Shown here piece by piece: positions 1,823 through 61,397 of a stretch of DNA of 64,000 nucleotides. Source of the DNA: an uncultured Armatimonadetes bacterium (GTDB lineage: Bacteria; Armatimonadota; Hebobacteria; Hebobacterales; Hebobacteraceae). The position numbers and the translations under genes were made by a program. Under the pieces are notes generated by a model, which saw nothing but the letters and a program-made list of their open reading frames with translations, ran no database searches and had not been told where the DNA came from. Every line of letters begins with the position of its first letter. The stretch's first letter is position 1. The stretch spans positions 96,001 to 160,000 of the forward strand of contig OY970296.1 in the NCBI GenBank assembly GCA_963716175.1, read 5' to 3'.

Positions 1823-2450
1823 TCACGCGGCTTCGCGGTGGTAGGAGTTCAGCAGCCCGCCCAGGAACTGCTCGCACTCGACCCGGAGCCCCTGGTCAGG
1901 GATTCCGCCGGTCGGATCCAGCGGCGCCAGCAGGCTCCCTCGGCGGTCTGGGATCTGATTGGCGATGGGGGCAGTCCGTTGCGCCGCAGAATGCCCGCGA
2001 TGCAGCCCTTCGAGCGCGTGACGCCCAGCTTGAGCAGTTCCCCTCGGATGCGCTGGTAGCCCCAGGTGTCCTCCCGCGCCAGGCGGCAGACCAGGTTTCG
2101 ATGTCGTCCGAGGTCCGAGGGCGGCCCGGGGCGCGTCGGGCGCTGCAATCCCACTTCCGCCGCTCCGATCGCCGCTGCCAGGCCAGGATCGTCTCCGGCT
2201 TGACGATACTCACCACTTTCTTCATCAGCGGCCGACCCATGGCCAGCGCGGCCTCGACCAGCGACCGGCGTTCCTCATCTGTGAAGCGGAGCCGCCCTGG
2301 CATCTTCTCTTTGAGAAGTCTATTCTCCAGGCCCAGGTATTCATTCTGCAGCGTCAGCTCCCGGCACAATAGGCGCGCTACCGTGGCCATGACTGGCAGC
2401 CCCACCCAGTCCAATCTCAACTCGGCATCCTTCTCCATCCTCAGCCTCAC
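1823..2450 (-). pseudogene. Internally deleted, frameshifted integrase-core (rve-type) transposase remnant
   Basis: N-terminal [31 protein letters not shown], then WGYQRIRGELLKLG in another frame, then C-terminal FLGGLLNSYHREAA* ending at 1823; the catalytic core is missing. Confidence 0.75.
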
Positions 2451-2727
2451 AGCGCAGGGATATGCACGGGAGCCGAGAATACTACGCCATGGGCTATATA
2501 GGGGCTCTCGAAGCCAGATGGGTCTTCGGACAGGACAGGGTTCATGCCAGTGGGGTGTGGGGCCGGCCGGTGGAGCTGCCCTTCGATCCTCCGGATGATC
2601 TTTCCCAGCAAGTGACTGCGTCTCTCAGACGCAATCCCTGAGTACCCCCCTGCCAGGGACTGCTAAGCGACCTCCCGGTGTCTGATTAATGCGGCACTGC
2701 AAATTGAAGTTGGAAGCGCGGGCTTGA

Positions 2728-26384: not shown

Positions 26385-26453
26385 GCATCCTCGCGCCGGC
26401 CGGCGGCACCACCACGGCCGGCGCATGACGACGGCGTGCGGGCAAAGGCAGGA

Positions 26454-28460
26454 ATGGCGCGGCGGGATTCCGGGCTTGAAGATAGCGGTGCTGCAGTCGC
26501 GCCGGCTTCCGCGCCGGGCGTGGCGCTTGGCCTGCCGCGACTGCCGGTCTGGCGGGGGTTCGCCGCCGGTCTGCTCTTGCTGGCGCCCAACTCGCTCTGG
26601 GTCTACTACATGGAGGGGATGACGGGGCACGGTCCGTACGTCTCCACCATCTCGCTGTTCCTCAATGTCGTGTTCATCATCGCCGTCTGCGGTGCGCTGA
26701 ACTCGCTCGCGCGAAGACTGCGGCCCGGGCTGGCGCTGAACCGCGCCGAACTCATCATCGCCTACGTGATACTGACCATCAACACCTCTATCGTCGGGCA
26801 TGACCTGATGCAGGTGCTGTTCCCGGTGATGACGGCGGGCTACTGGCTGGCGAACCCTCAGAACCGATGGGGCGATATGCTGACCGCGACGACGCCGAGC
26901 TGGCTCGGCGTCTCGGACAGGGAGGTCCTGTACGGCTACTACAGCGGCTCATCCACCATGTACCAGGCGGCGGTGATCAGGGCCTGGCTTGGACCGGCCC
27001 TGTGGTGGAGCGGCTTCGTGCTGGTGCTGGTCTCCGCCATGGTGTGCATGGCAGTGCTGGTGAGGCCTCTCTGGGCCGAGCGGGAGCGCCTGACCTTCCC
27101 GATCATCCAACTGCCCCTCGAGCTCACAAACCCGGAGAGCAGCCTGCTGAGAAGTCGCTTGCTCTGGATCGGGGTTGCGGTGGCCGGGGGCATCGATACG
27201 GTGAATGCTCTCAACACGGTCTATCCCTCTATCCCGGCGATTCCGGTCAGCTTCGATCTGATGACCTACATAAAGGATCCTCCGTGGAGCGGTATCGGCT
27301 GGCTGCCGGTCACCTTCCACCCCTTCCTGATCGGTCTGTCTTTCCTGATGCCGCTCGACCTGAGCTTCTCCTGCGTGTTCTTCTTCTTCTGGTGGAAACT
27401 GCTCTACGTGATCGCGACCGCGACGGGGATAAGCACCGGCTACGCCGGGGACATGTCTGAGGCGATCTTCCCCTGGAAGAACGAGCAGATGTTCGGCGGC
27501 TTCATCGCCATCACACTCAGCTCGCTTCTGATCGGGAGACACTACTTCGGGCACGTCTGGCGCCGCATTGTGAGCGGGATGGGTGAGGTGGACGACGCCC
27601 GGGAAGGGTTGCGGTTCCGCACCGCGGCGGTGGGCCTGGTGGTCTGTATCCTCCTGTTGGTGGCCTTCAGCGTCCACGGGGGGATGTCCCCGTGGCTGGC
27701 CGTCACCTTTTTTGCGCTATACTACGCCCTCGCCACCGCGGTGGCGAGGGTGCGCGCCGAGCTCGGGGCTCCGGTGCATGATTTCCACTTCACCGGGCCG
27801 GACTATGCACTTGCACACATGCTCGGCACCGGCAACCTGCGGGCGCGTGACCTGGGGATGCTTGGGCAGTACTTCTGGTTCAACCGGGCCTACCGGGGGC
27901 ACCCCATCGCGGGTTCGCTGGAGGGGCTGCAGATGGCGGCGCGCGCCGGGATGTCGCCGCGCCCCATTGTGGCCGCCGTGCTGGTGGCGGTCCTGCTATC
28001 GCTGGCAGCCGGCTTTTGGATCCGGCTTCACCTCTCCTACCAGGTCGGCACGAACATGCTGTTCATCTCGACCGGCGACTGGTTCGGGGTGGAGACCTAC
28101 AACCGGCTTCAGTCCTGGACGGAGAGCCCCAAGCCGATGAACCTGGCGGCGGCCGGCGCGATGGGCGCCGGACTCGTGACCACCCTCCTGCTGGCGGCGG
28201 CACGCACTACCTTCGTAGGCTGGCCGCTGCACCCGGTAGCGTATGCGCTTTCGGCGAGTTGGGAGATCCACCTGGTGTGGATGCCGATGCTCATCGCGTG
28301 GCTGGCCAAACTGGCCATCACCCGCTACGGCGGACTACGTCTCTACCACCAGGCGCTGCCTTTCTTCTTCGGGCTCATCTTGGGCGAATCTCTCGTGGGC
28401 TGTCTGTGGGTGCTGATCGGGCTGGTTCTCAAGCTCCCGAGCTACAGCTTCTTCACGTAG
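26454..28460 (+). CDS. DUF6785/DUF6784-type polytopic membrane protein (putative transporter)
   Basis: Many transmembrane helices; W.ERERLTFPIIQLP, WPLHPVAY, RYGGLRLY..ALPFFFGLILGE. Confidence 0.75.
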   Translation: MARRDSGLEDSGAAVAPASAPGVALGLPRLPVWRGFAAGLLLLAPNSLWVYYMEGMTGHGPYVSTISLFLNVVFIIAVCGALNSLARRLRPGLALNRAELIIAYVILTINTSIVGHDLMQVLFPVMTAGYWLANPQNRWGDMLTATTPSWLGVSDREVLYGYYSGSSTMYQAAVIRAWLGPALWWSGFVLVLVSAMVCMAVLVRPLWAERERLTFPIIQLPLELTNPESSLLRSRLLWIGVAVAGGIDTVNALNTVYPSIPAIPVSFDLMTYIKDPPWSGIGWLPVTFHPFLIGLSFLMPLDLSFSCVFFFFWWKLLYVIATATGISTGYAGDMSEAIFPWKNEQMFGGFIAITLSSLLIGRHYFGHVWRRIVSGMGEVDDAREGLRFRTAAVGLVVCILLLVAFSVHGGMSPWLAVTFFALYYALATAVARVRAELGAPVHDFHFTGPDYALAHMLGTGNLRARDLGMLGQYFWFNRAYRGHPIAGSLEGLQMAARAGMSPRPIVAAVLVAVLLSLAAGFWIRLHLSYQVGTNMLFISTGDWFGVETYNRLQSWTESPKPMNLAAAGAMGAGLVTTLLLAAARTTFVGWPLHPVAYALSASWEIHLVWMPMLIAWLAKLAITRYGGLRLYHQALPFFFGLILGESLVGCLWVLIGLVLKLPSYSFFT

Positions 28461-28506
28461 TCCCCCGAACCGACGATAGAATGCGCGATGCCAGCGCCGA
28501 TAGGGA

Positions 28507-28571
28507 CATGTCTCATCAGAGACCACGAGATGGTCGTCGGGAAACTGCACGGGGAGAGTCTTGACACGCCA
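28507..28571 (-). repeat. Left part of an ~80-bp repeat interrupted by the IS110 element
   Basis: Reverse complement aligns with about 61085-61146 (GGCGTGTCA..TGCAGT..CCCGA..GGTCTCTG.TGAGACATG). Confidence 0.75.
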
Positions 28572-28589
28572 AATGGCTATGCTAAGTGA

Positions 28590-28826
28590 GCGGGTTCCGT
28601 GCAGGGCGGAGGGGTTGTCGCCGGACCTGCCTTCGACTAGCCTGAGAAGGCAGGGGGCCGAGGTAGGGCTGCCTATAAGATGCGCTCCGGTACACCGGAG
28701 TCGCTCCGCCCGAATTGCCACCTCGGCCCGCCCTCCCGTTTGCCTGATTGGCCATTTGCGCTCCGGTTCTGGAGTCGCTGAGAGAATCGTGGACCAGCGG
28801 GAAGACCTGCCCATCTTGGCACGGAG
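28590..28826 (+). ncRNA. Putative IS110 bridge RNA (5' hairpin, target-binding loop, donor-binding loop)
   Basis: Hairpin 28626-28654; two internal loops sharing TGCGCTCCGG...CYGGAGTCGCT; flanking variable segments match the target and donor junctions. Confidence 0.75.
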
Positions 28827-28835
28827 GAGGCGGCG

Positions 28836-30050
28836 ATGGAAGCGGATGTGATCTGGGTGGGAGTCGACGTAGGGCGCTACACCCATGCGCTCTGTGGGAT
28901 TGACGCATCAGGGGCAATCGTGTGGGAGCGGCAACGGGTTCCCAACCCCACTTGGGCAATGCGCCGCGCGTTCGAGAAGCTGAGCCGCTTCGCCAAGGGC
29001 CGACCACTGCGCTTTGCGACCGAAGAGCCCGCTGGCAATGCCTCTGCACTGCTTCGTCTGCTGGCGGCAGCTGGCGAAGCCGTCTACCTCGCTCAGCCAC
29101 TCCGAGTGTATCGGTTTCACCTTGCCCTGGGGCAGCCCCACAAGACAGACCCCTATGATGCTCAGGTGATCGCCGAGTTCGCCCGCCAGAATGCCTCCAA
29201 GCTGCCCCCCGTTCGGCTTGGTACACCAGCTACGCAGGCCCTGCGCGTGCTCTCCCGGCGGGCCGAGGCCCTGAGCAAGGATCTGCGGCGCTGCGTCAAC
29301 CGGCTTCGTGGTGTGCTTGCTGAGTATGCACCCGAGTGGCTTGCCTGTAAGGTGTTCAGGGACTGGTCCAGTGGGGCGGCCTTGGGGACGCTGGAGCGTT
29401 ACGGGCGGATCTCAAAGCTGCGTCGAGCCCGCGTCAGCTCACTTGCCAAGGCCCTCTCCCAGTGGACGCAAGGACGCTACGGCGAAGCCCAGGCTCGCGC
29501 GCTCATCGCAGCCTTCGCGGAAGTCTCTCTCCCTGCGCAGTTGGAAGCAGCCCACTCTCAGGTGATCTGCTCTCTCGTCTCCCAGATTCGCGGTCTGATC
29601 GCGGAGAGAGGGCAATTGCGCGCGCGCGTCGCGGCGGAGGGCGAATCCCTGCCCGCGGTGGCAGTGCTCCAGTCCGAATTCGGCTACGGTCCGGAAACAG
29701 CCGCCGTCATCGTTTCCGAGGTCGGTGACATGGCCGACTTCCCCAGAGAAGCAGCTTTCGCTACCTACTGTGGGGTGACTCCGCTCAAACGCAGGTCTGG
29801 GGTCTCCCGCGGCTCTGCACGCCTCTCGCGCTTCACGAGCAAACGGCTGCTGCGAGCCGTTACGCAGGCGGCGCTGACAGCTGCGACCCACCACGCAGAG
29901 TCCCGACTCTACTACCAGAAGAAGCTGGCCGGCCGATCCGATCCGCGCACCAAGACGCTCGCCCTCATCGCGCTCGCGCGGCATCGCGCCCGGCGGCTCT
30001 ACAAGGTACTGCGACGTGCGTCGTTACCGTCGGCGGAGGTCGCCGCGTAA
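28836..30050 (+). CDS. IS110 family DEDD recombinase/transposase
   Basis: WVGVDVGR, ATEE, HKTDPYDA (RuvC-like DEDD); FATYCGVTP...SG catalytic Ser region; GGAGGAGG RBS. Confidence 0.92.
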   Translation: MEADVIWVGVDVGRYTHALCGIDASGAIVWERQRVPNPTWAMRRAFEKLSRFAKGRPLRFATEEPAGNASALLRLLAAAGEAVYLAQPLRVYRFHLALGQPHKTDPYDAQVIAEFARQNASKLPPVRLGTPATQALRVLSRRAEALSKDLRRCVNRLRGVLAEYAPEWLACKVFRDWSSGAALGTLERYGRISKLRRARVSSLAKALSQWTQGRYGEAQARALIAAFAEVSLPAQLEAAHSQVICSLVSQIRGLIAERGQLRARVAAEGESLPAVAVLQSEFGYGPETAAVIVSEVGDMADFPREAAFATYCGVTPLKRRSGVSRGSARLSRFTSKRLLRAVTQAALTAATHHAESRLYYQKKLAGRSDPRTKTLALIALARHRARRLYKVLRRASLPSAEVAA

Positions 30051-30094
30051 CGTGAGCAAGACCGCGTTGAGACAACTCTTGACTAAACAGAGAG

Positions 30095-30113
30095 TCTTAT
30101 AGGGACACCCACA
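30095..30113 (-). repeat. Right part of the IS110-interrupted repeat
   Basis: Reverse complement TGTGGGTGTCCCTATAAGA matches TGTGGGTGTTCCCATAAGG at 61066-61084. Confidence 0.7.
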
Positions 30114-30198: not shown

Positions 30199-30540
30199 AT
30201 GCCAGCCATCAGCGGTGACATTCTCAAGGGCAACACTCTCACTCTTATCCTCAGTCTGCTCGAAGAGCAGCCGATGTACGGGTTCCAGATCTCGCGAGAG
30301 GTCGAGCGGCGGAGCGAGGGGACGTTGCGCTTTAGAGAGGGGCTGCTCTATCCGGCACTGCACCAACTGGAGAAGGAAGAACTGGTCGAGGCCGAATGGA
30401 AGGTCTCGAGCCAGGGGCCGCGGCGCAAGTACTACCGGCTGACCGGGAAAGGCAGGCGGCAGGCGGAGAGGCTGCGCAGGAGATGGGCGGCATTCGCGGG
30501 CGCGGTGAACCAGGTGCTCGGGAGCAAGGCCCGTGGTTAG
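30199..30540 (+). CDS. PadR family transcriptional regulator
   Basis: LKGNTLTLILSLL...PMYGFQI...EGLLYPALHQLE...RRKYYRLT. Confidence 0.92.
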   Translation: MPAISGDILKGNTLTLILSLLEEQPMYGFQISREVERRSEGTLRFREGLLYPALHQLEKEELVEAEWKVSSQGPRRKYYRLTGKGRRQAERLRRRWAAFAGAVNQVLGSKARG

Positions 30541-40438: not shown

Positions 40439-40745
40439 TCACAGCCTAACAACCACACGGGCCAGGGAGCGGCGTTCTTCATGGGTGCAGCGCAGCCGGC
40501 CCGGCATCTTGGACTTGAGCGTCCGGTTCTCCAGCAGCAGGTGCCTGTTCTGCAATGTCAGCTCCCGACACAGCAGTCGCGCCAAGGGGGCGATCACGGG
40601 CAGGTGGACCCACTCGACTCCCCGCTCAGTATCCCTTTCGATCCTCGCTAGCCTCCCGCAATAGGGGTATCAGCGAGTGCCGAGGATACCACGAGAGGCC
40701 GCAGGAGCAGTCTGGCAGCCAGATGAGTTTCGGAACAGGACCAGG
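40439..40745 (-). mobile_element. Left-end remnant of the same transposase family as 1823-2450
   Basis: Minus strand encodes [51 protein letters not shown]; end motif GCCAGATGAGTTTCGGAACAGGAC resembles GCCAGATGGGTCTTCGGACAGGAC at 2513-2536. Confidence 0.75.
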
Positions 40746-45039: not shown

Positions 45040-47169
45040 TCACGCATGGGCGGTTGTGATAACGATCTCCCGGAAGCCGGCGAAACCGTTGTCCACCCGG
45101 AAGCCCGCGCCGCCGCGGCCGAGCTTGGTGTCCTCGCCTGTAAGGACCCTCTTACCGTCGAGCGATGCGGTGATGGTGGTTCCGCGGACGGTGAGCGAGA
45201 GTCGGTGCAGTTCGTCTACCTCCCAGATGCACGGCATTTCTGCTAGCACCGTCTCGCCGTAGTAGTTGAGCAAGAGCTTGAGCGCGTCGCGCGTCTTGAC
45301 GAGCGCGATGAATCGTTCGAGGCCCTGGTAGCGGGCGATGATGCCAGCGGTGTCGGCGCAGTGGATGGAGAGTTGAACCGAAACAGTGTAGTCCGTCCAG
45401 TCTTCATTGCCGGTGGCGAGTATGCCGCACCCCTCATCCTTGCCCACGTAGGTCATCGCAGGGGCGGTCTTGCCAGAGCGGCCGACCACGCGGTCGGCAT
45501 CGACCACCCAGCCGGGAACAGTTCCGTCCTTCTGGGGAAGCTCATCGGGGATATGGATGTCGGGCGGTCCGGTGAAGAGGACTCTGTTCACAAAGAGCGA
45601 TCCGGCGGCGGATGGGCCCCCGGTGATCTCCACCCCAATGTCTTTGACCGGGAACCCGCGGTCGCCCGGTACGGGCAGGGTGAGAGCGAAGGGCGAGCCA
45701 GCCTTGAGCTGGACGGGCTCTCCATAGACCAGCTTCGTGCCCGTCACCTGACTGCCGTCCCCGTCGGCGGCGAGGCACCGAGCGAACAGGCGAATGCTCG
45801 CCTGGCTCTCGCACTTCCTCGCCACCCCCTCAAGCGTGACCACCTGCCCAGCGTAGACCTTCGGGGTTCCGACGATCCCATAGCCATAGCCAACAGGCTC
45901 TGCGAGAACCGGCGTGGACACGCGAACCGGATGGTTTGGCGCTGCCTCCTGGTAGGCTATCTCCATCACCCGCGTTCCGTTCGGTCCTGCGACATTCGCC
46001 ACCGCGCCCGTTCCAGGCATGCCCTGGTCGGTTCTCTCGACCATGTACCCGTGCCGGCTGCCGGGCAGGATGAAGTGATGCCAGGCGCCGCCCTTGGGCG
46101 CCTCCAGCTCGGGCCAGCCCATGATCTTCCGGCCGATGCGGGCAATGTGGAGGGCTTCCTGGAGGCAGTCGGAGACGTGGCGGCTGCCTTCGGCAGTGGG
46201 AAGGAGCATGCGATCGGCGAAGGGGCCCCGGAAGTCATAGTCCTTGCTGATGCCGTCGAGGCCTGCAACCAGTCCCATGACTGTGCCGACATTGGCGGCG
46301 TTGCAGTCGGTATCCCATCCGGCGGTGGTGACGATGGCCAGGGCCCGGCGGAAGTCGTCGAGCGCGTAGCTCCATGCCATCACCATGAGCGCGTGGTTCG
46401 GGATGACGTGGCAGCCTCCGCCGTAGCTGTCATAACCGTACTTTCCTGCGATCCGGTCATAGGTCCGATGCCAATCGCCGTCTTGCCGACACCAGGAGCG
46501 GACGTCGCGGTGGAGCTGCCCGACCAAGCTGTTCCGAGCGATGACGCTGACGCCGATATCGAGCAGCCTCTGCATATCTTTCTCGACGAAGGCGGCGGAA
46601 ACCATAGCGGCAACGACCATGGCGGCGTTGACCGCTTCGCCGTCATGGGAGACCTGCGCGGCGGGCCGCGCGAGGCGGGCGGCGAGCTGGGGATCGCCGG
46701 GAGCGACCAGGCCGAAGGCGTCGATGAAGATCTGGGCGCCGATCTGTTCGGCGACGACGCGGCCGTTGAGCGCGATGCTGCCGCTGCGGGGGCTCGGGAT
46801 GCCGTGCTTCAGGCGCAGGTAGGCGGTGTGCTCCGTGGACACGCCCAGGCCGCCCCACCAGAGGATCGTCTTGCCCTCAATGAGATAGTTGAGCCAGGTC
46901 TTCCCGAAGAAGTCGGGCGTGGTGTCGGCATAGCGGCCGGAGTCCTCTAGGGCGCGGACAAAGGTGAAGGTGCCGCTGATGTCATCATCGGGCACGACGA
47001 GGGGAACTCCGCGGTCGGCGGCGATGTAGTGATCGATGAGGCCCCATTTCTCAACCAGCCTTTGCTGTTCCCATCCCTCCACGGGGCGGGCGAGGTAGAC
47101 GCCAATAACCTTGCCGAGCACACCGGCGTAGACCTGTTGTTCGTAGTTGGCAATCTCAGATGCGGCCAT
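45040..47169 (-). CDS. Long ADP-ribosylglycohydrolase family protein with C-terminal beta domains
   Basis: YAGVLGKVIGVYLARPVEGW, PDDDISGT, STEHTAY, IGAQIFID, GWDTDCNAANVG. Confidence 0.85.
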   Translation of the reverse strand: MAASEIANYEQQVYAGVLGKVIGVYLARPVEGWEQQRLVEKWGLIDHYIAADRGVPLVVPDDDISGTFTFVRALEDSGRYADTTPDFFGKTWLNYLIEGKTILWWGGLGVSTEHTAYLRLKHGIPSPRSGSIALNGRVVAEQIGAQIFIDAFGLVAPGDPQLAARLARPAAQVSHDGEAVNAAMVVAAMVSAAFVEKDMQRLLDIGVSVIARNSLVGQLHRDVRSWCRQDGDWHRTYDRIAGKYGYDSYGGGCHVIPNHALMVMAWSYALDDFRRALAIVTTAGWDTDCNAANVGTVMGLVAGLDGISKDYDFRGPFADRMLLPTAEGSRHVSDCLQEALHIARIGRKIMGWPELEAPKGGAWHHFILPGSRHGYMVERTDQGMPGTGAVANVAGPNGTRVMEIAYQEAAPNHPVRVSTPVLAEPVGYGYGIVGTPKVYAGQVVTLEGVARKCESQASIRLFARCLAADGDGSQVTGTKLVYGEPVQLKAGSPFALTLPVPGDRGFPVKDIGVEITGGPSAAGSLFVNRVLFTGPPDIHIPDELPQKDGTVPGWVVDADRVVGRSGKTAPAMTYVGKDEGCGILATGNEDWTDYTVSVQLSIHCADTAGIIARYQGLERFIALVKTRDALKLLLNYYGETVLAEMPCIWEVDELHRLSLTVRGTTITASLDGKRVLTGEDTKLGRGGAGFRVDNGFAGFREIVITTAHA

Positions 47170-57054: not shown

Positions 57055-58270
57055 ACAATTTTCACTCAGTTTCGCCTTTCCCCCGGACTCATTCGGGCCA
57101 CTCGCCGAATGGGCTTTGAGACGCCGACTCCCATCCAGCAGGAAGTAATTCCTCTTGCGCTTGCCGGCGGCGATGTCATCGCCACGGCGGAGACGGGAAG
57201 CGGCAAGACCGCTGCCTTCTTGCTCCCACTGATCCAGCGTCTCTACGGCGGCCGGAACGGATGCACGCGAGCGCTGATCCTCTCTCCCACGCGTGAGCTC
57301 GCGGCCCAAACCGCGGAGCAGTGCGTCCTACTGACGCACGACACACCTCTGCGCACAATAGACGTGTACGGCGGCGTCGGCATGGCCCGCCAACATCGAG
57401 GCCCTGAGAGTCGGCTATGAGATCGTGGTGGCAACGCCTGGTCGATTGCTCGACCACTGCCGCCGACGTTCGGCTCGGCTCGACGCGGTCGAAGTGCTGG
57501 TGGTGGACGAGGCCGACCGCATGATGGACATGGGGTTCATCCCCGACCTGCGGCGCATCCTTGCGCTGCTGCCTAGAGAACGCCAGTCCATGCTCTTCTC
57601 CGCCACCATGCCGATCGCGCTGATGGAAGTGGCGTATGAGGAGATCCTGCGGAACCCGACCCACGTCGAGGTCGGCTCGCCCTCTGCTCCGCCCCCGACG
57701 GTATCGCAGTCTGTGTACATGGTGCCGTCGGCGCGCAAGACCGATCTGCTGCTGGAGTTGCTCAACCACGATGCCATGGTGAGCGTGGTGGTCTTCGTTC
57801 GCACCCGGCACCGCGCCAATCTCCTCGCCACTCGTCTTCAGCGCGAGAGGCTGAAGACGGCCTGCATCCACGGTGATCGCAGCCAACACGAGCGGGAACA
57901 GGCCCTCGACAGCTTCCGGCAGCGCTCCGTGCGAGTGCTTGTCGCAACCGACGTTGCTGCTCGCGGCCTCCATGTGGAGGGAGTCACGCATGTGGTCAAC
58001 TACGACGTCCCTGCCCTGCCAGTGGAGTATCTCAACCGGATCGGACGAACGGCGCGAGCCGGAGCCTCCGGTGATGCCCTCACCCTGGCAAGCCGCGAGG
58101 ACGCCGCTGCTCTGGCGGGCATTGAACGTACTCTCGGCGGGCAGTTGCCCCGGGTGGCCGTGGCGGGGTTGACCGAGCCCGAGCCTGCTCGCATCTCGCC
58201 TGTACCTGGGAGGCCCCGCCCGCACCCACGCGGTGCGCGGCGGTCGCTGGGCCGAGGTCGGCGAAGGTAG
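57055..58270 (+). pseudogene. DEAD-box RNA helicase (RhlE-like), frameshifted near 57394; start unresolved
   Basis: MGFETPTPIQ, AETGSGKT, PTRELA, then ATPGRL, DEAD, SAT, HGDRSQ, TDVAARG in the next frame; motif VI reads NRIGRT. Confidence 0.85.
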
Positions 58271-61065: not shown

Positions 61066-61146
61066 TGTGGGTGTTCCCATAAGGCGGCGTGTCAGTAGCC
61101 CTCCTGCAGTACCCCGAGACCCGTATGCGGTCTCTGTTGAGACATG
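61066..61146 (+). repeat. Uninterrupted copy of the ~80-bp repeat targeted by the IS110 element
   Basis: Colinear with the reverse complement of 28507-28571 joined to 30095-30113. Confidence 0.75.
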
Positions 61147-61397
61147 CTGTCGTTGTCAACCGCTCGTGAAGCCGGCCTGAGGGCACCCTCGCCCAGTCCG
61201 ACCACAGCTCGGCATCGTCGCCTATCCTCTACGCCTCCCAGCACAGGAGTGTCAGCGAGTGCCGAGAATATCATGATGTGCGTCCCAGTAGCGCTCTGGC
61301 GGGCGGGACGCTATCCGGACACTGCGAGGCCCAGGTGAAGTGGCGCTTTGATCCTAGCTCTGCTGGCATCGAACACCGCAGGACCAAGAGGAGACCC

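Follow-up and report, generated by a model that had tools for sequence, protein, structure and literature searches.

We analysed a window of 64,000 nucleotides (nt), G000:C1:96001-160000, from the genome of an uncultured Armatimonadetes bacterium, which is assembled as a single contig of 4.56 Mb with 66% G+C. The same short repeat occurs at two places in this window. At one of them it is interrupted by an insertion sequence (IS) of the IS110 group, here called IS-A (the filled copy), and at the other it is uninterrupted (the empty copy). An IS110 element lying inside a dispersed repeat, with an uninterrupted copy in the same window, was the core of the original prediction made from the letters alone, and both are supported by our analysis. 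As argued below, the repeat is very probably the bridge/seek-RNA-bearing right-end module of a second, IS1111-type insertion sequence, IS-B, and IS-A appears to be programmed against an inverted repeat inside this module. The relevant features of the window, named according to this reading, are:

28462-28570, plus strand: filled copy, left part of the right-end module, CCCCCGAACCGACGATAG...GTCTTGACACGCC (profile positions 46-153, E = 6.5e-29)
28561-28566, plus strand: -35-like TTGACA within the filled copy
28571-30095, plus strand: IS-A, IS110-group insertion sequence of 1,525 bp, boundaries ±2 nt (28572-30094 in the original prediction)
28655-28725, plus strand: predicted bridge RNA of IS-A, target-binding loop
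28736-28800, plus strand: predicted bridge RNA of IS-A, donor-binding loop
28836-30050, plus strand: IS-A transposase, 404 amino acids (DEDD_Tnp_IS110 and Transposase_20 domains, NF033542, motif GVTPLKRRSG)
30096-30106, plus strand: last 11 bp of the interrupted, putatively IS-B-type right end, CTTATAGGGAC, split off by IS-A
30107-30113, plus strand: flank past the IS-B tip, ACCCACA, of the same half-site type as 61066-61072
61066-61072, minus strand: flank past the IS-B tip, reading ACCCACA on this strand; copies diverge right after ...TATAGGGAC
61073-61146, minus strand: empty copy, probable 5'-truncated IS-B-like (IS1111-type) right-end module of 74 nt (profile positions 91-172, E = 9.9e-10)
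61147-61335, minus strand: fragment of a second repeat family, X, whose end ..GCGGTTGACAACGACAG abuts the truncated module (E = 7.9e-15; 61185-61335, E = 4.5e-28)

On the minus strand the empty copy reads CATGTCTC...CCGCCTTATGGGAAC, and it holds an unoccupied IS-A site at 61083/61086. The filled copy lies between a gene for a DUF6785/DUF6784 membrane protein (26436-28460), which ends with its stop codon directly at the module, and the gene of a PadR-family regulator (30199-30537), which begins 86 bp past the flank.

The 81-nt string quoted in the original prediction was located at 61066-61146, and its 84-nt string with the IS removed was reproduced exactly by deleting 28572-30094 and reading the minus strand. 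Among 35 x 25 pairs of cut positions tried, this pair was the only one to do so. We then joined 28507-28570 to 30096-30113, both surely outside IS-A, and aligned the reverse complement globally with the empty copy. This gave 67 identities in 87 columns and a score of 40, compared with maxima of 9 in 2000 mononucleotide shuffles and 10 in 3000 random genomic 81-mers (control mean about -11, standard deviation 4.4). The similarity of the two window copies is real and non-random. Chance or low-complexity resemblance has only the high G+C content in its favor and is refuted by the score of 40 against at most 10 across 5000 controls, by nhmmer E-values of 1e-9 to 1e-51 for the copies and by conservation of the module in other genomes, leaving it a practically negligible probability. 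An alignment without gaps across the insertion point, as originally described, is obtained with the cut of the original prediction, although three small indels occur elsewhere; with our cut (28571-30095), the junction in the filled copy lacks 2-3 nt relative to the empty copies. The empty copy does delimit the boundaries of IS-A, to within about 2 nt.

An nhmmer profile, seeded from three copies and later rebuilt from eleven, yielded 8 matches at E <= 1e-6 in the genome, and a short fragment was found beyond these (genome coordinates):

2890609-2890438, minus strand: repeat copy adjoining the intact IS-B transposase gene
1713246-1713088, minus strand: repeat copy
57478-57629, plus strand: repeat copy
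124462-124570, plus strand: repeat copy filled by IS-A (window)
1626982-1627089, plus strand: diverged repeat copy
157146-157067, minus strand: empty copy of the window
267871-267779 and 2968270-2968318: partial repeat copies
221428-221463: 36-bp repeat fragment, beyond the 8 profile matches

With other copies present in the genome and the alignment well above shuffled controls, the repeat is dispersed as proposed, but the proposed length of about 80 bp is too short. Full copies measure about 131 bp, from GCCCCCGAAACCGACGATAG to CCGTCTTATAGGGAC, or about 164 bp counting the stretch that follows the transposase gene, and the empty copy of the window is without the first ~55 nt of the module. 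Both termini suggested earlier (TGT...ACA-like ends) have to be given up: TGTGGGT at 61066-61072 is flanking sequence, namely an IS-B target half-site, and the other supposed end (..GAGACATG) is a truncation point.

That longer copies might abut a transposase gene had been raised as a check, and the copy at 2.89 Mb indeed begins 40 bp after the stop codon of one. This gene belongs to the single intact copy of IS-B (genome 2890444-2891737, minus strand, 1,294 bp), which comprises a left non-coding end of 77 bp, a transposase of 350 amino acids and a right non-coding region of 164 bp. The IS-B transposase contains DEDD_Tnp_IS110 (PF01548, 8.8e-12) and Transposase_20 (IS116/IS110/IS902 C-terminal; PF02371, 2.8e-20) domains, scores 199.5 bits against NF033542 (cut-off 140) and carries the motif GLVPAVYQTG at residue 250, which has the GL-P----(S/T)G form. 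IS1111 elements are described as having non-coding DNA downstream of the transposase gene, inverted repeats in subterminal position and a match to the top strand that is placed 5' of the match to the bottom strand (PMC11187229; PMC11208160), and their transposases show a C-terminal GL-P----S(t)G motif (PMC11187229). With these domains and this motif, its subterminal repeats (9-10 bp, within the 7-17 bp typical of the group) and its longer downstream non-coding region (77 vs 164 bp), IS-B would be placed in the IS1111 group.

Further, the linkage of repeat and transposase gene extends to other genomes. A 221-nt query made of the end of the transposase gene, the repeat and 37 nt beyond was searched in 41 related genomes and matched in 10, the window's own included; of the 14 others in its family, 8 had a match. 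Long matches start within the last part of the transposase gene and run as far as the tip of the repeat. Using tblastn, an IS-B-like transposase was found directly upstream of the repeat at L009 (genome G005, 76% amino acid identity), L011 (G013, 87%), L020 (G013, 68%) and L025 (G002, 68%), whereas none was detected there at L021, L028, L030 and L033. In G011, C-terminal transposase remnants (residues 281-366 and 324-366) precede the module. In a phylum-wide sample of 201 genomes, IS-B-like transposases were present in 4, all from the window's family, and the repeat follows at 5 of the 5 loci. G014 has 13 module matches, many of them at contig ends, and shows the transposase only as its first 26 codons at a contig end; with the transposase interior unassembled, this genome is uninformative on linkage. 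A separate pattern search of genome contigs returned only two, distant relatives of the IS-B transposase (23-26% identity).

The boundaries of IS-B could be read from both sides. Similarity ends right after ..TATAGGGAC in 25 of 27 aligned copies, the remaining two being cut off before the tip, and the variable sequence past the tip is of one type, A-NNN-RCA(G/C) (AAGGACAG, ACCCACAG, AGCCACAG). The flank at 61066-61072 is a right target half-site typical of IS-B insertions (A-NNN-R-CA-G/C). On the left side, five elements start with TATCATAAG or TAACATAAG after ..TTGAC, ..TCGAC, ..CTGAC, ..TGGAC or ..CCGAC; the left and right boundaries together give the coordinates of IS-B stated above. A subterminal inverted repeat of 9-10 bp lies a few nt in from the tips (left C-TATCATAAGACGG, right CCGTCTTATAGGAAC; found by eye, without statistics), with CCGTCTTATAG in the module pairing with CTATCATAAGACGG of the left end. 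The inverted repeat is also found in L009 and L011, and L011 has a shared A>G change. In addition, TTGACG is located exactly 17 nt before the IS-B tip, the general form of the module end being TTGAC(G/A), 17 nt and the tip. A full IS-B circle would join ..TATAGGAAC to TATCATAAG.., and its junction would read TTGACG-17 nt-TATCAT, a near-consensus match to a putative sigma-70-like promoter.

The right non-coding region of IS-B contains several guide-like segments. Directly after the stop codon and 5' of GGCCGA, a 7-nt segment reads as the reverse complement of the right-hand junction, covering the final 3 nt of the IS and the 4 nt of flank next to them (AACAGCC, AACAAGC, GACACAC, AACACCC and GACAACG are examples). 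Across 8 elements, a guide and its own flank agree at 3.4 of 4 variable nt on average and non-own pairs at 1.8 of 4, a sum attained in 1 of 20,000 permutations. Another arm (..CGCTTGAC, ..CGGTTGAC, ..TTCTGGAC) is similar to the left flank, agreeing in each of 5 elements at 5-6 of 7 positions, which is consistent with this picture though too weak to count. An internal arm (..GATAGGGAC) repeats the right tip TATAGGGAC, and the two change together in two lineages, to GAGAC in L020/L036 and to GGAGAC in the 57k copy (380 of 20,000 permutations reached the observed sum), while the arm ..GACGATAG (..GATAG..) is complementary to the left tip C/TATC (here and below, a slash in a sequence marks a junction). 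The top-strand match lies 5' of the bottom-strand match in this region. The IS-B right region would accordingly be expected to encode a bridge/seek RNA with the post-stop guide, the arm for the left flank and a loop whose arms match the element's own tips. The repeat also diverges together with the gene: G013 harbors two IS-B lineages whose transposases are 87% and 68% identical to the query at the amino acid level and whose repeats are 84% and 74% identical to it, and divergence in step with a transposase would not be expected of a host repeat. As a separate observation, L023 (G014:C12:1-520) carries the final ~15 bp of the IS-B right end twice in tandem (TCGTCTTATAGGGAC-TCGTCTTATAGGAAC), which may be the footprint of recombination at the tip.

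IS-A, the element inside the filled copy, has non-coding ends of 265 bp (left) and 45 bp (right), and its transposase matches PF01548 (9.9e-29), PF02371 (2.7e-19) and NF033542 (205 bits). With a DEDD transposase, a long left and a short right end and no long subterminal inverted repeats, it displays the features of the IS110 group. The predicted fold of 28625-28800 consists of a basal hairpin and two stems, both of which surround an internal loop bearing an inner hairpin; its energy is -82 kcal/mol (z = -3.2, 0 of 200 shuffles as stable). The 5' arm of loop 1, CCTATAAGAT (28672-28681), is complementary to the right flank CTTATAGG, and the 3' arm, TCCGCCCGAAT (28705-28715), beyond the inner hairpin at 28682-28704, resembles the left flank ..ACGCC. 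In loop 2, the 5' arm GGCCATTT (28750-28757) is complementary to the left tip of IS-A, AAATGGC, and the 3' arm TGAGAGAAT (28779-28787) resembles its right tip, CAGAGAG. IS-A is located between ..GTCTTGACACGCC and CTTATAGGGAC/ACCCACA inside the right inverted repeat of IS-B, 4 nt past the -35 box and 11-13 nt from the IS-B tip, and has the same orientation as the module. Its 5' two-loop bridge RNA would be programmed against ..ACGCC-(2-3 nt)-CTTATAGG, with insertion in a fixed orientation.

Two further IS-A fragments exist in the genome, at 162253-162554 and 3010077-3010815. The first has the same right junction, GAGAGT/CTTATAGAGAC, followed by /AGGAC, that is, an IS-B-type tip and half-site; this junction is consistent rather than proven, since only 11 module nt are left and 8 of these are demanded by the guide anyway. 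The second has no junction. A pattern search of genome contigs for the IS-A transposase gave 85 pattern matches, none of which was confirmed. At E <= 1e-40, relatives of IS-A were found in 2 of 30 other genomes of the class, one running off a contig end and the other fragmentary and containing stop codons, and targeting by relatives could be compared at one left junction only. In the relative cut by the contig end (G018, 65% amino acid identity), loop 2 and the overall architecture are kept, the inner stem shows compensatory changes (CTCCGG/CCGGAG vs TCCCGA/TCGGGA), the loop-1 arms are different and the left flank is different and coding-like, which looks like natural retargeting.

Taken together, the sequence relationships, the transposase linkage, the boundaries and the guide-flank covariation make it very probable that the repeat is the right-end module of IS-B and that IS-A is aimed at the inverted repeat within it; that both RNAs are made and guide recombination as in IS621 and ISEc11 would follow by analogy. 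Several points weigh against this interpretation. Site-specific IS110-family elements always sit next to their own target, and linkage alone therefore cannot separate a part of IS-B from a target of IS-B, a question decided by the boundaries, the inverted repeat and junction promoter, the divergence and the guide covariation. The 8 elements in the covariation analysis are not independent, as L020 and L036 are close kin, and the effective sample is smaller. Rfam gave no match at gathering thresholds for the window and none at E <= 1 for the IS-A and IS-B loci. A single-sequence fold of the IS-B 3' region showed no significant stability (z = -1.96, equalled by 8 of 200 shuffles), and RNAalifold on the module returned two short helices with no useful covariation and no convincing consensus, so that the argument for an IS-B RNA rests on guide-flank covariation. 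The left junction of IS-A reads AA, compared with GT or GC in uninterrupted copies, and the crossover dinucleotide is not fixed from one full copy. Finally, 2-3 transposase-less copies begin at nearly the same position (..GGAC/AG..GCCCCC), which random deletion does not predict.

In case of the part-or-target question, the competing view is that the repeat is a host intergenic repeat, similar to repetitive extragenic palindromic (REP) or enterobacterial repetitive intergenic consensus (ERIC) sequences or to miniature inverted-repeat transposable elements (MITEs), which is targeted by both IS-A and IS-B, with IS-B ending at ..CGCTTGAC. Constant adjacency is expected under this view too, and with that cut the right end of IS-B (..GCGCCCTCGCTTGAC) resembles the left flank (..GCGGCCCTTGAC). 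However, IS-B would be left with 77 + about 35 bp of non-coding DNA and no room for a bridge RNA. The tip of the module is one arm of the inverted repeat whose other arm lies in the left end of IS-B, and it provides the -35 box exactly 17 nt from TATCAT, the post-stop guide co-varies with the sequence after the module and not with the module start, and module divergence tracks the transposase lineage within one genome. Further, the module lacks flanking target duplications as well as terminal inverted repeats, and neighbor genes are unrelated from copy to copy. We consider a host repeat very unlikely.

More specific candidates were rejected as well. A MITE does not fit, as the two ends of the module show no inverted repetition and none of the copies has a flanking duplication; no IS-B left-end sequence was found upstream of solo copies, and a MITE made of left and right end was rejected for this reason. 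Of the identities left open in the original prediction (MITE, end of another element or recombination site), it is the end of another element, an IS1111-like right end, that is supported. A REP, bacterial interspersed mosaic element (BIME) or ERIC-type repeat is disfavored by a module that is contiguous with a transposase gene or its remnant at 7 loci in 5 genomes and diverges with the gene. A conserved regulatory region of a PadR operon (PadR gene starting at 30199) was dismissed too: the genes adjoining the copies (DUF6785/PadR; radical-SAM/beta-helix; ST7-like/LacI; a phage-type integrase 2 kb away) are unrelated, so the repeat is not a shared regulatory region.

If the module is the right end of IS-B, the copies without a transposase need an explanation. 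Most module copies in the genome are of this kind, being 5'-truncated at several points with the 3' tip intact, and both window copies are, judged from their sequence, such transposase-less remnants of IS-B. In other genomes, truncation points lie within the transposase gene (G011), near the stop codon (L021) and inside the module (L028, L033), and the empty copy of the window and L030 (G011) are truncated at ..CATGTCTC, within 1 nt of each other. These varied 5' truncations would fit decay of full IS-B elements. Alternatively, the solo copies might represent a selfish RNA module mobilised in trans by the IS-B recombinase, like ssr9 of ISPpu9. In ISPpu9, the small RNA module on the downstream side is reported to give minicircles of its own and to be present in independent copies (PMC12288879). 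The 57k and 1713k copies have their starts a few nt apart, immediately behind ..GGAC, which resembles the IS-B left half-site plus core, and end with a normal tip followed by a target-like flank (AAGGACAG at 57k); several of the 13 module matches in G014 lie at contig ends. Against trans mobilisation, the other copies are truncated at different points (transposase gene, stop codon, inside the module, ..CATGTCTC), no left-end sequence precedes solo copies, and the putative left boundary of the module (CTGAGAGGCCCCC) bears no resemblance to the left end of the IS; in G014 it is merely the assembly that lacks the interior of the transposase gene. When the module was compared with the boxes of ssr9, its right boundary proved to be the true IS tip, whereas the left follows ..GAC and is unlike the IS left end. 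We regard trans mobilisation as rather unlikely. In intact elements, the ..GGAC at which the 57k and 1713k copies begin is the end of the DNA for the arm that copies the left flank. These starts could stem from deletion between the left flank and its copy in the guide region, a possibility we raise by inference only; module-only mobilisation as for ssr9 is another possibility.

Under the preferred interpretation as IS-B right ends, copies of the module can be compared as potential IS-A sites. The original prediction attributed several mismatches in the guide-matching segment to the empty copy and offered them as a possible reason for its vacancy. It has one mismatch (A>G) in the 8-nt CTTATAGG. 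Matches to this 8-mer at eight places, two of them occupied (one certain, one probable), are as follows:

Site 124k: 8/8, filled
Site 162k: 7/8, filled (probable)
Site 2890k: 8/8, empty; left arm differs (GACGTGCC)
Site 1713k: 7/8, empty
Site 157k (empty copy of the window): 7/8, empty; left arm identical over 9 nt
Site 221k: 7/8, empty
Site 57k: 6/8, empty
Site 1627k: 5/8, empty

Match counts overlap between filled and empty sites, the perfect site at genome 2890454 being empty and a 7/8 site at 162555 occupied, and guide mismatch thus does not explain occupancy. The 8-mer occurs 17 times in the genome; 14 occurrences are unrelated to either IS, and 0 of these 14 is occupied. With one full IS-A copy, chance is enough to account for which site was filled.

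IS-B in turn has a recognizable target. The left flanks of IS-B elements belong to X, a repeat family of about 300 bp that starts CTGTCCAGAAACTCATCTGG, ends GGCCGGCTTCACGGGCGGTTGAC-ANGGACAG (GGTTGAC-ANGGACAG) and has 6-bp inverted termini, CTGTCC/GGACAG. The genome contains 123 nhmmer matches to X at E <= 1e-5, 30 of them at least 200 bp long and 86 on the minus strand, with many clustered at 1.9-2.1 Mb, and X is also present in G014. Within the window, X copies are found at:

2366-2541, minus strand: X copy
40570-40741, minus strand: X copy
61185-61335, minus strand: X copy (fragment 61147-61335)

The insertion site of IS-B, TTGAC/A-NNN-RCAG, is the terminal motif of X. IS-B sits at TTGAC/A in the right end of X in case of the intact copy in G000, the 1927k fragment, L009, L011 and G014. 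The L020 lineage (arm ..TGGAC) occupies the left end of X, read as its reverse complement (..GATGAGTATTTGGAC/), and so does a left-end fragment in G000 at 1723k. The empty copy of the window is a composite, in which an X fragment ending ..TTGACAACGACAG runs directly into the terminal 74 nt of the IS-B right end (61146-61073), and these lead into the flank ACCCACA (61072-61066), which resembles a half-site. Two side observations concern X and IS-B. The last ~45 nt of X loosely resemble the IS-B guide region (GGCCG..TTGAC..GAsAG), and X might be a MITE or derive from the end of another IS. At genome 1723209-1723282 (minus strand) there is an IS-B-type left-end fragment, CTATCATAGGACGG, with an IS-B-type tip, CCGTCCTATGGAGAC, ~1.45 kb downstream at 1721831; the pair may be a decayed second member of the IS-B family, inserted in a left end of X in reverse-complement orientation.

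These relationships invite a more speculative idea, which we hold as tentative at best: a three-level, RNA-programmed hierarchy in which X is the landing pad of IS-B, the bridge-RNA end of IS-B is the landing pad of IS-A, and solo modules form a self-renewing reservoir of IS-A targets. IS-B sub-lineages would have been retargeted to either end of X. By parting the IS-B tip from the -35 box and the inverted repeat, IS-A would disable IS-B. Solo modules may persist via trans mobilisation, or via action of the recombinase between the left flank and its guide-arm copy.

Work by Muller, Lauf & Herrmann from 2001 is said to have shown that IS1383, an IS110-family element of Pseudomonas putida H, integrates into the inverted repeats of IS1384. 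Likewise, IS4321 and IS5075 reportedly insert into the inverted repeats of Tn21. IS-A resembles IS1383 in being an IS110-family element aimed at the inverted repeat of another IS, but its prey itself belongs to the IS110/IS1111 superfamily, its site lies in a bridge-RNA-bearing right end and most of its targets are transposase-less remnants. As with IS4321 and Tn21, insertion is orientation-specific at a fixed position in the terminal repeat of another mobile element; there, an IS1111-type hunter meets Tn3-family prey, whereas here the hunter is IS110-type and the prey IS1111-type. The aiming of IS110-family elements at terminal repeats of other mobile elements is already known, and the IS-A/IS-B pair is a new, well-resolved example. 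A narrow literature search without supplements found no IS110-type element targeting an IS1111-type end.

Among systems with guide RNAs, IS-B shares layout, motif, strand order and natural retargeting in relatives with ISEc11, ISPa11 and ISKpn4 and their seekRNA (PMC11187229), but differs from them in its unrelated sequence, in its target, the end of a ~300-bp repeat family, and in a seekRNA that is predicted from DNA. IS-A is similar to IS621 with its bridge RNA (PMC11208160) in having a long left end and two loops with arms matching the flanks and its own tips; unlike IS621, the arm for the right flank comes first (5') and the transposase has 404 amino acids. This arm order (window 28672-28715) is that reported for IS1111-type seekRNAs and is opposite to the order in ISEc21, which is IS110-type (PMC11187229). 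It may mark a different bridge-RNA layout in the 395-455-amino-acid subgroup of IS110. Like ssr9 of ISPpu9 (PMC12288879), the IS-B module is small and non-coding, follows a transposase gene of the IS110 family and is also present solo in the genome. ISPpu9 can transpose without ssr9, which has boxes similar to the IS ends on its flanks, whereas the IS-B module carries guide-like arms and a true IS tip, and its solo copies mostly look like truncations.

The repeat is thereby resolved into two delimited insertion sequences, predicted to be RNA-guided, with readable guide-target pairs, the guide of IS-A lying 5' and that of IS-B 3' in the element. The IS-B lineages represent a natural series of retargeted guides, with seven different 4-nt right half-sites among 8 elements, and should be useful for comparisons in the bridge/seekRNA field. 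One bridge-RNA element can apparently be programmed against the end of another, and in genome annotation short repeats beside IS110-family elements should be tested first as remnants of other ISs. The accepted working of IS110/IS1111 elements is unchanged by this case, which is of moderate relevance and not surprising.

Two other types of IS110-family element were noted in the genome. One is present as four copies, ~99.6-99.9% identical and about 1.71 kb long, at genome 816029, 2788245, 4048462 and 783262. Their flanks look like reversed regions of ribosome-binding site and start codon (..CAT..CTCC), which suggests that this element targets gene starts, and the right end carries TTGACA. The other type occurs as two copies with 94% identity at 2849573-2850040 and 45736-46203. 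After the copy at 2.85 Mb, its right end recurs in degenerate form together with the same flank (..CGCCACAA.CGC), and this duplicate looks like a solo right-end remnant, as for IS-B.

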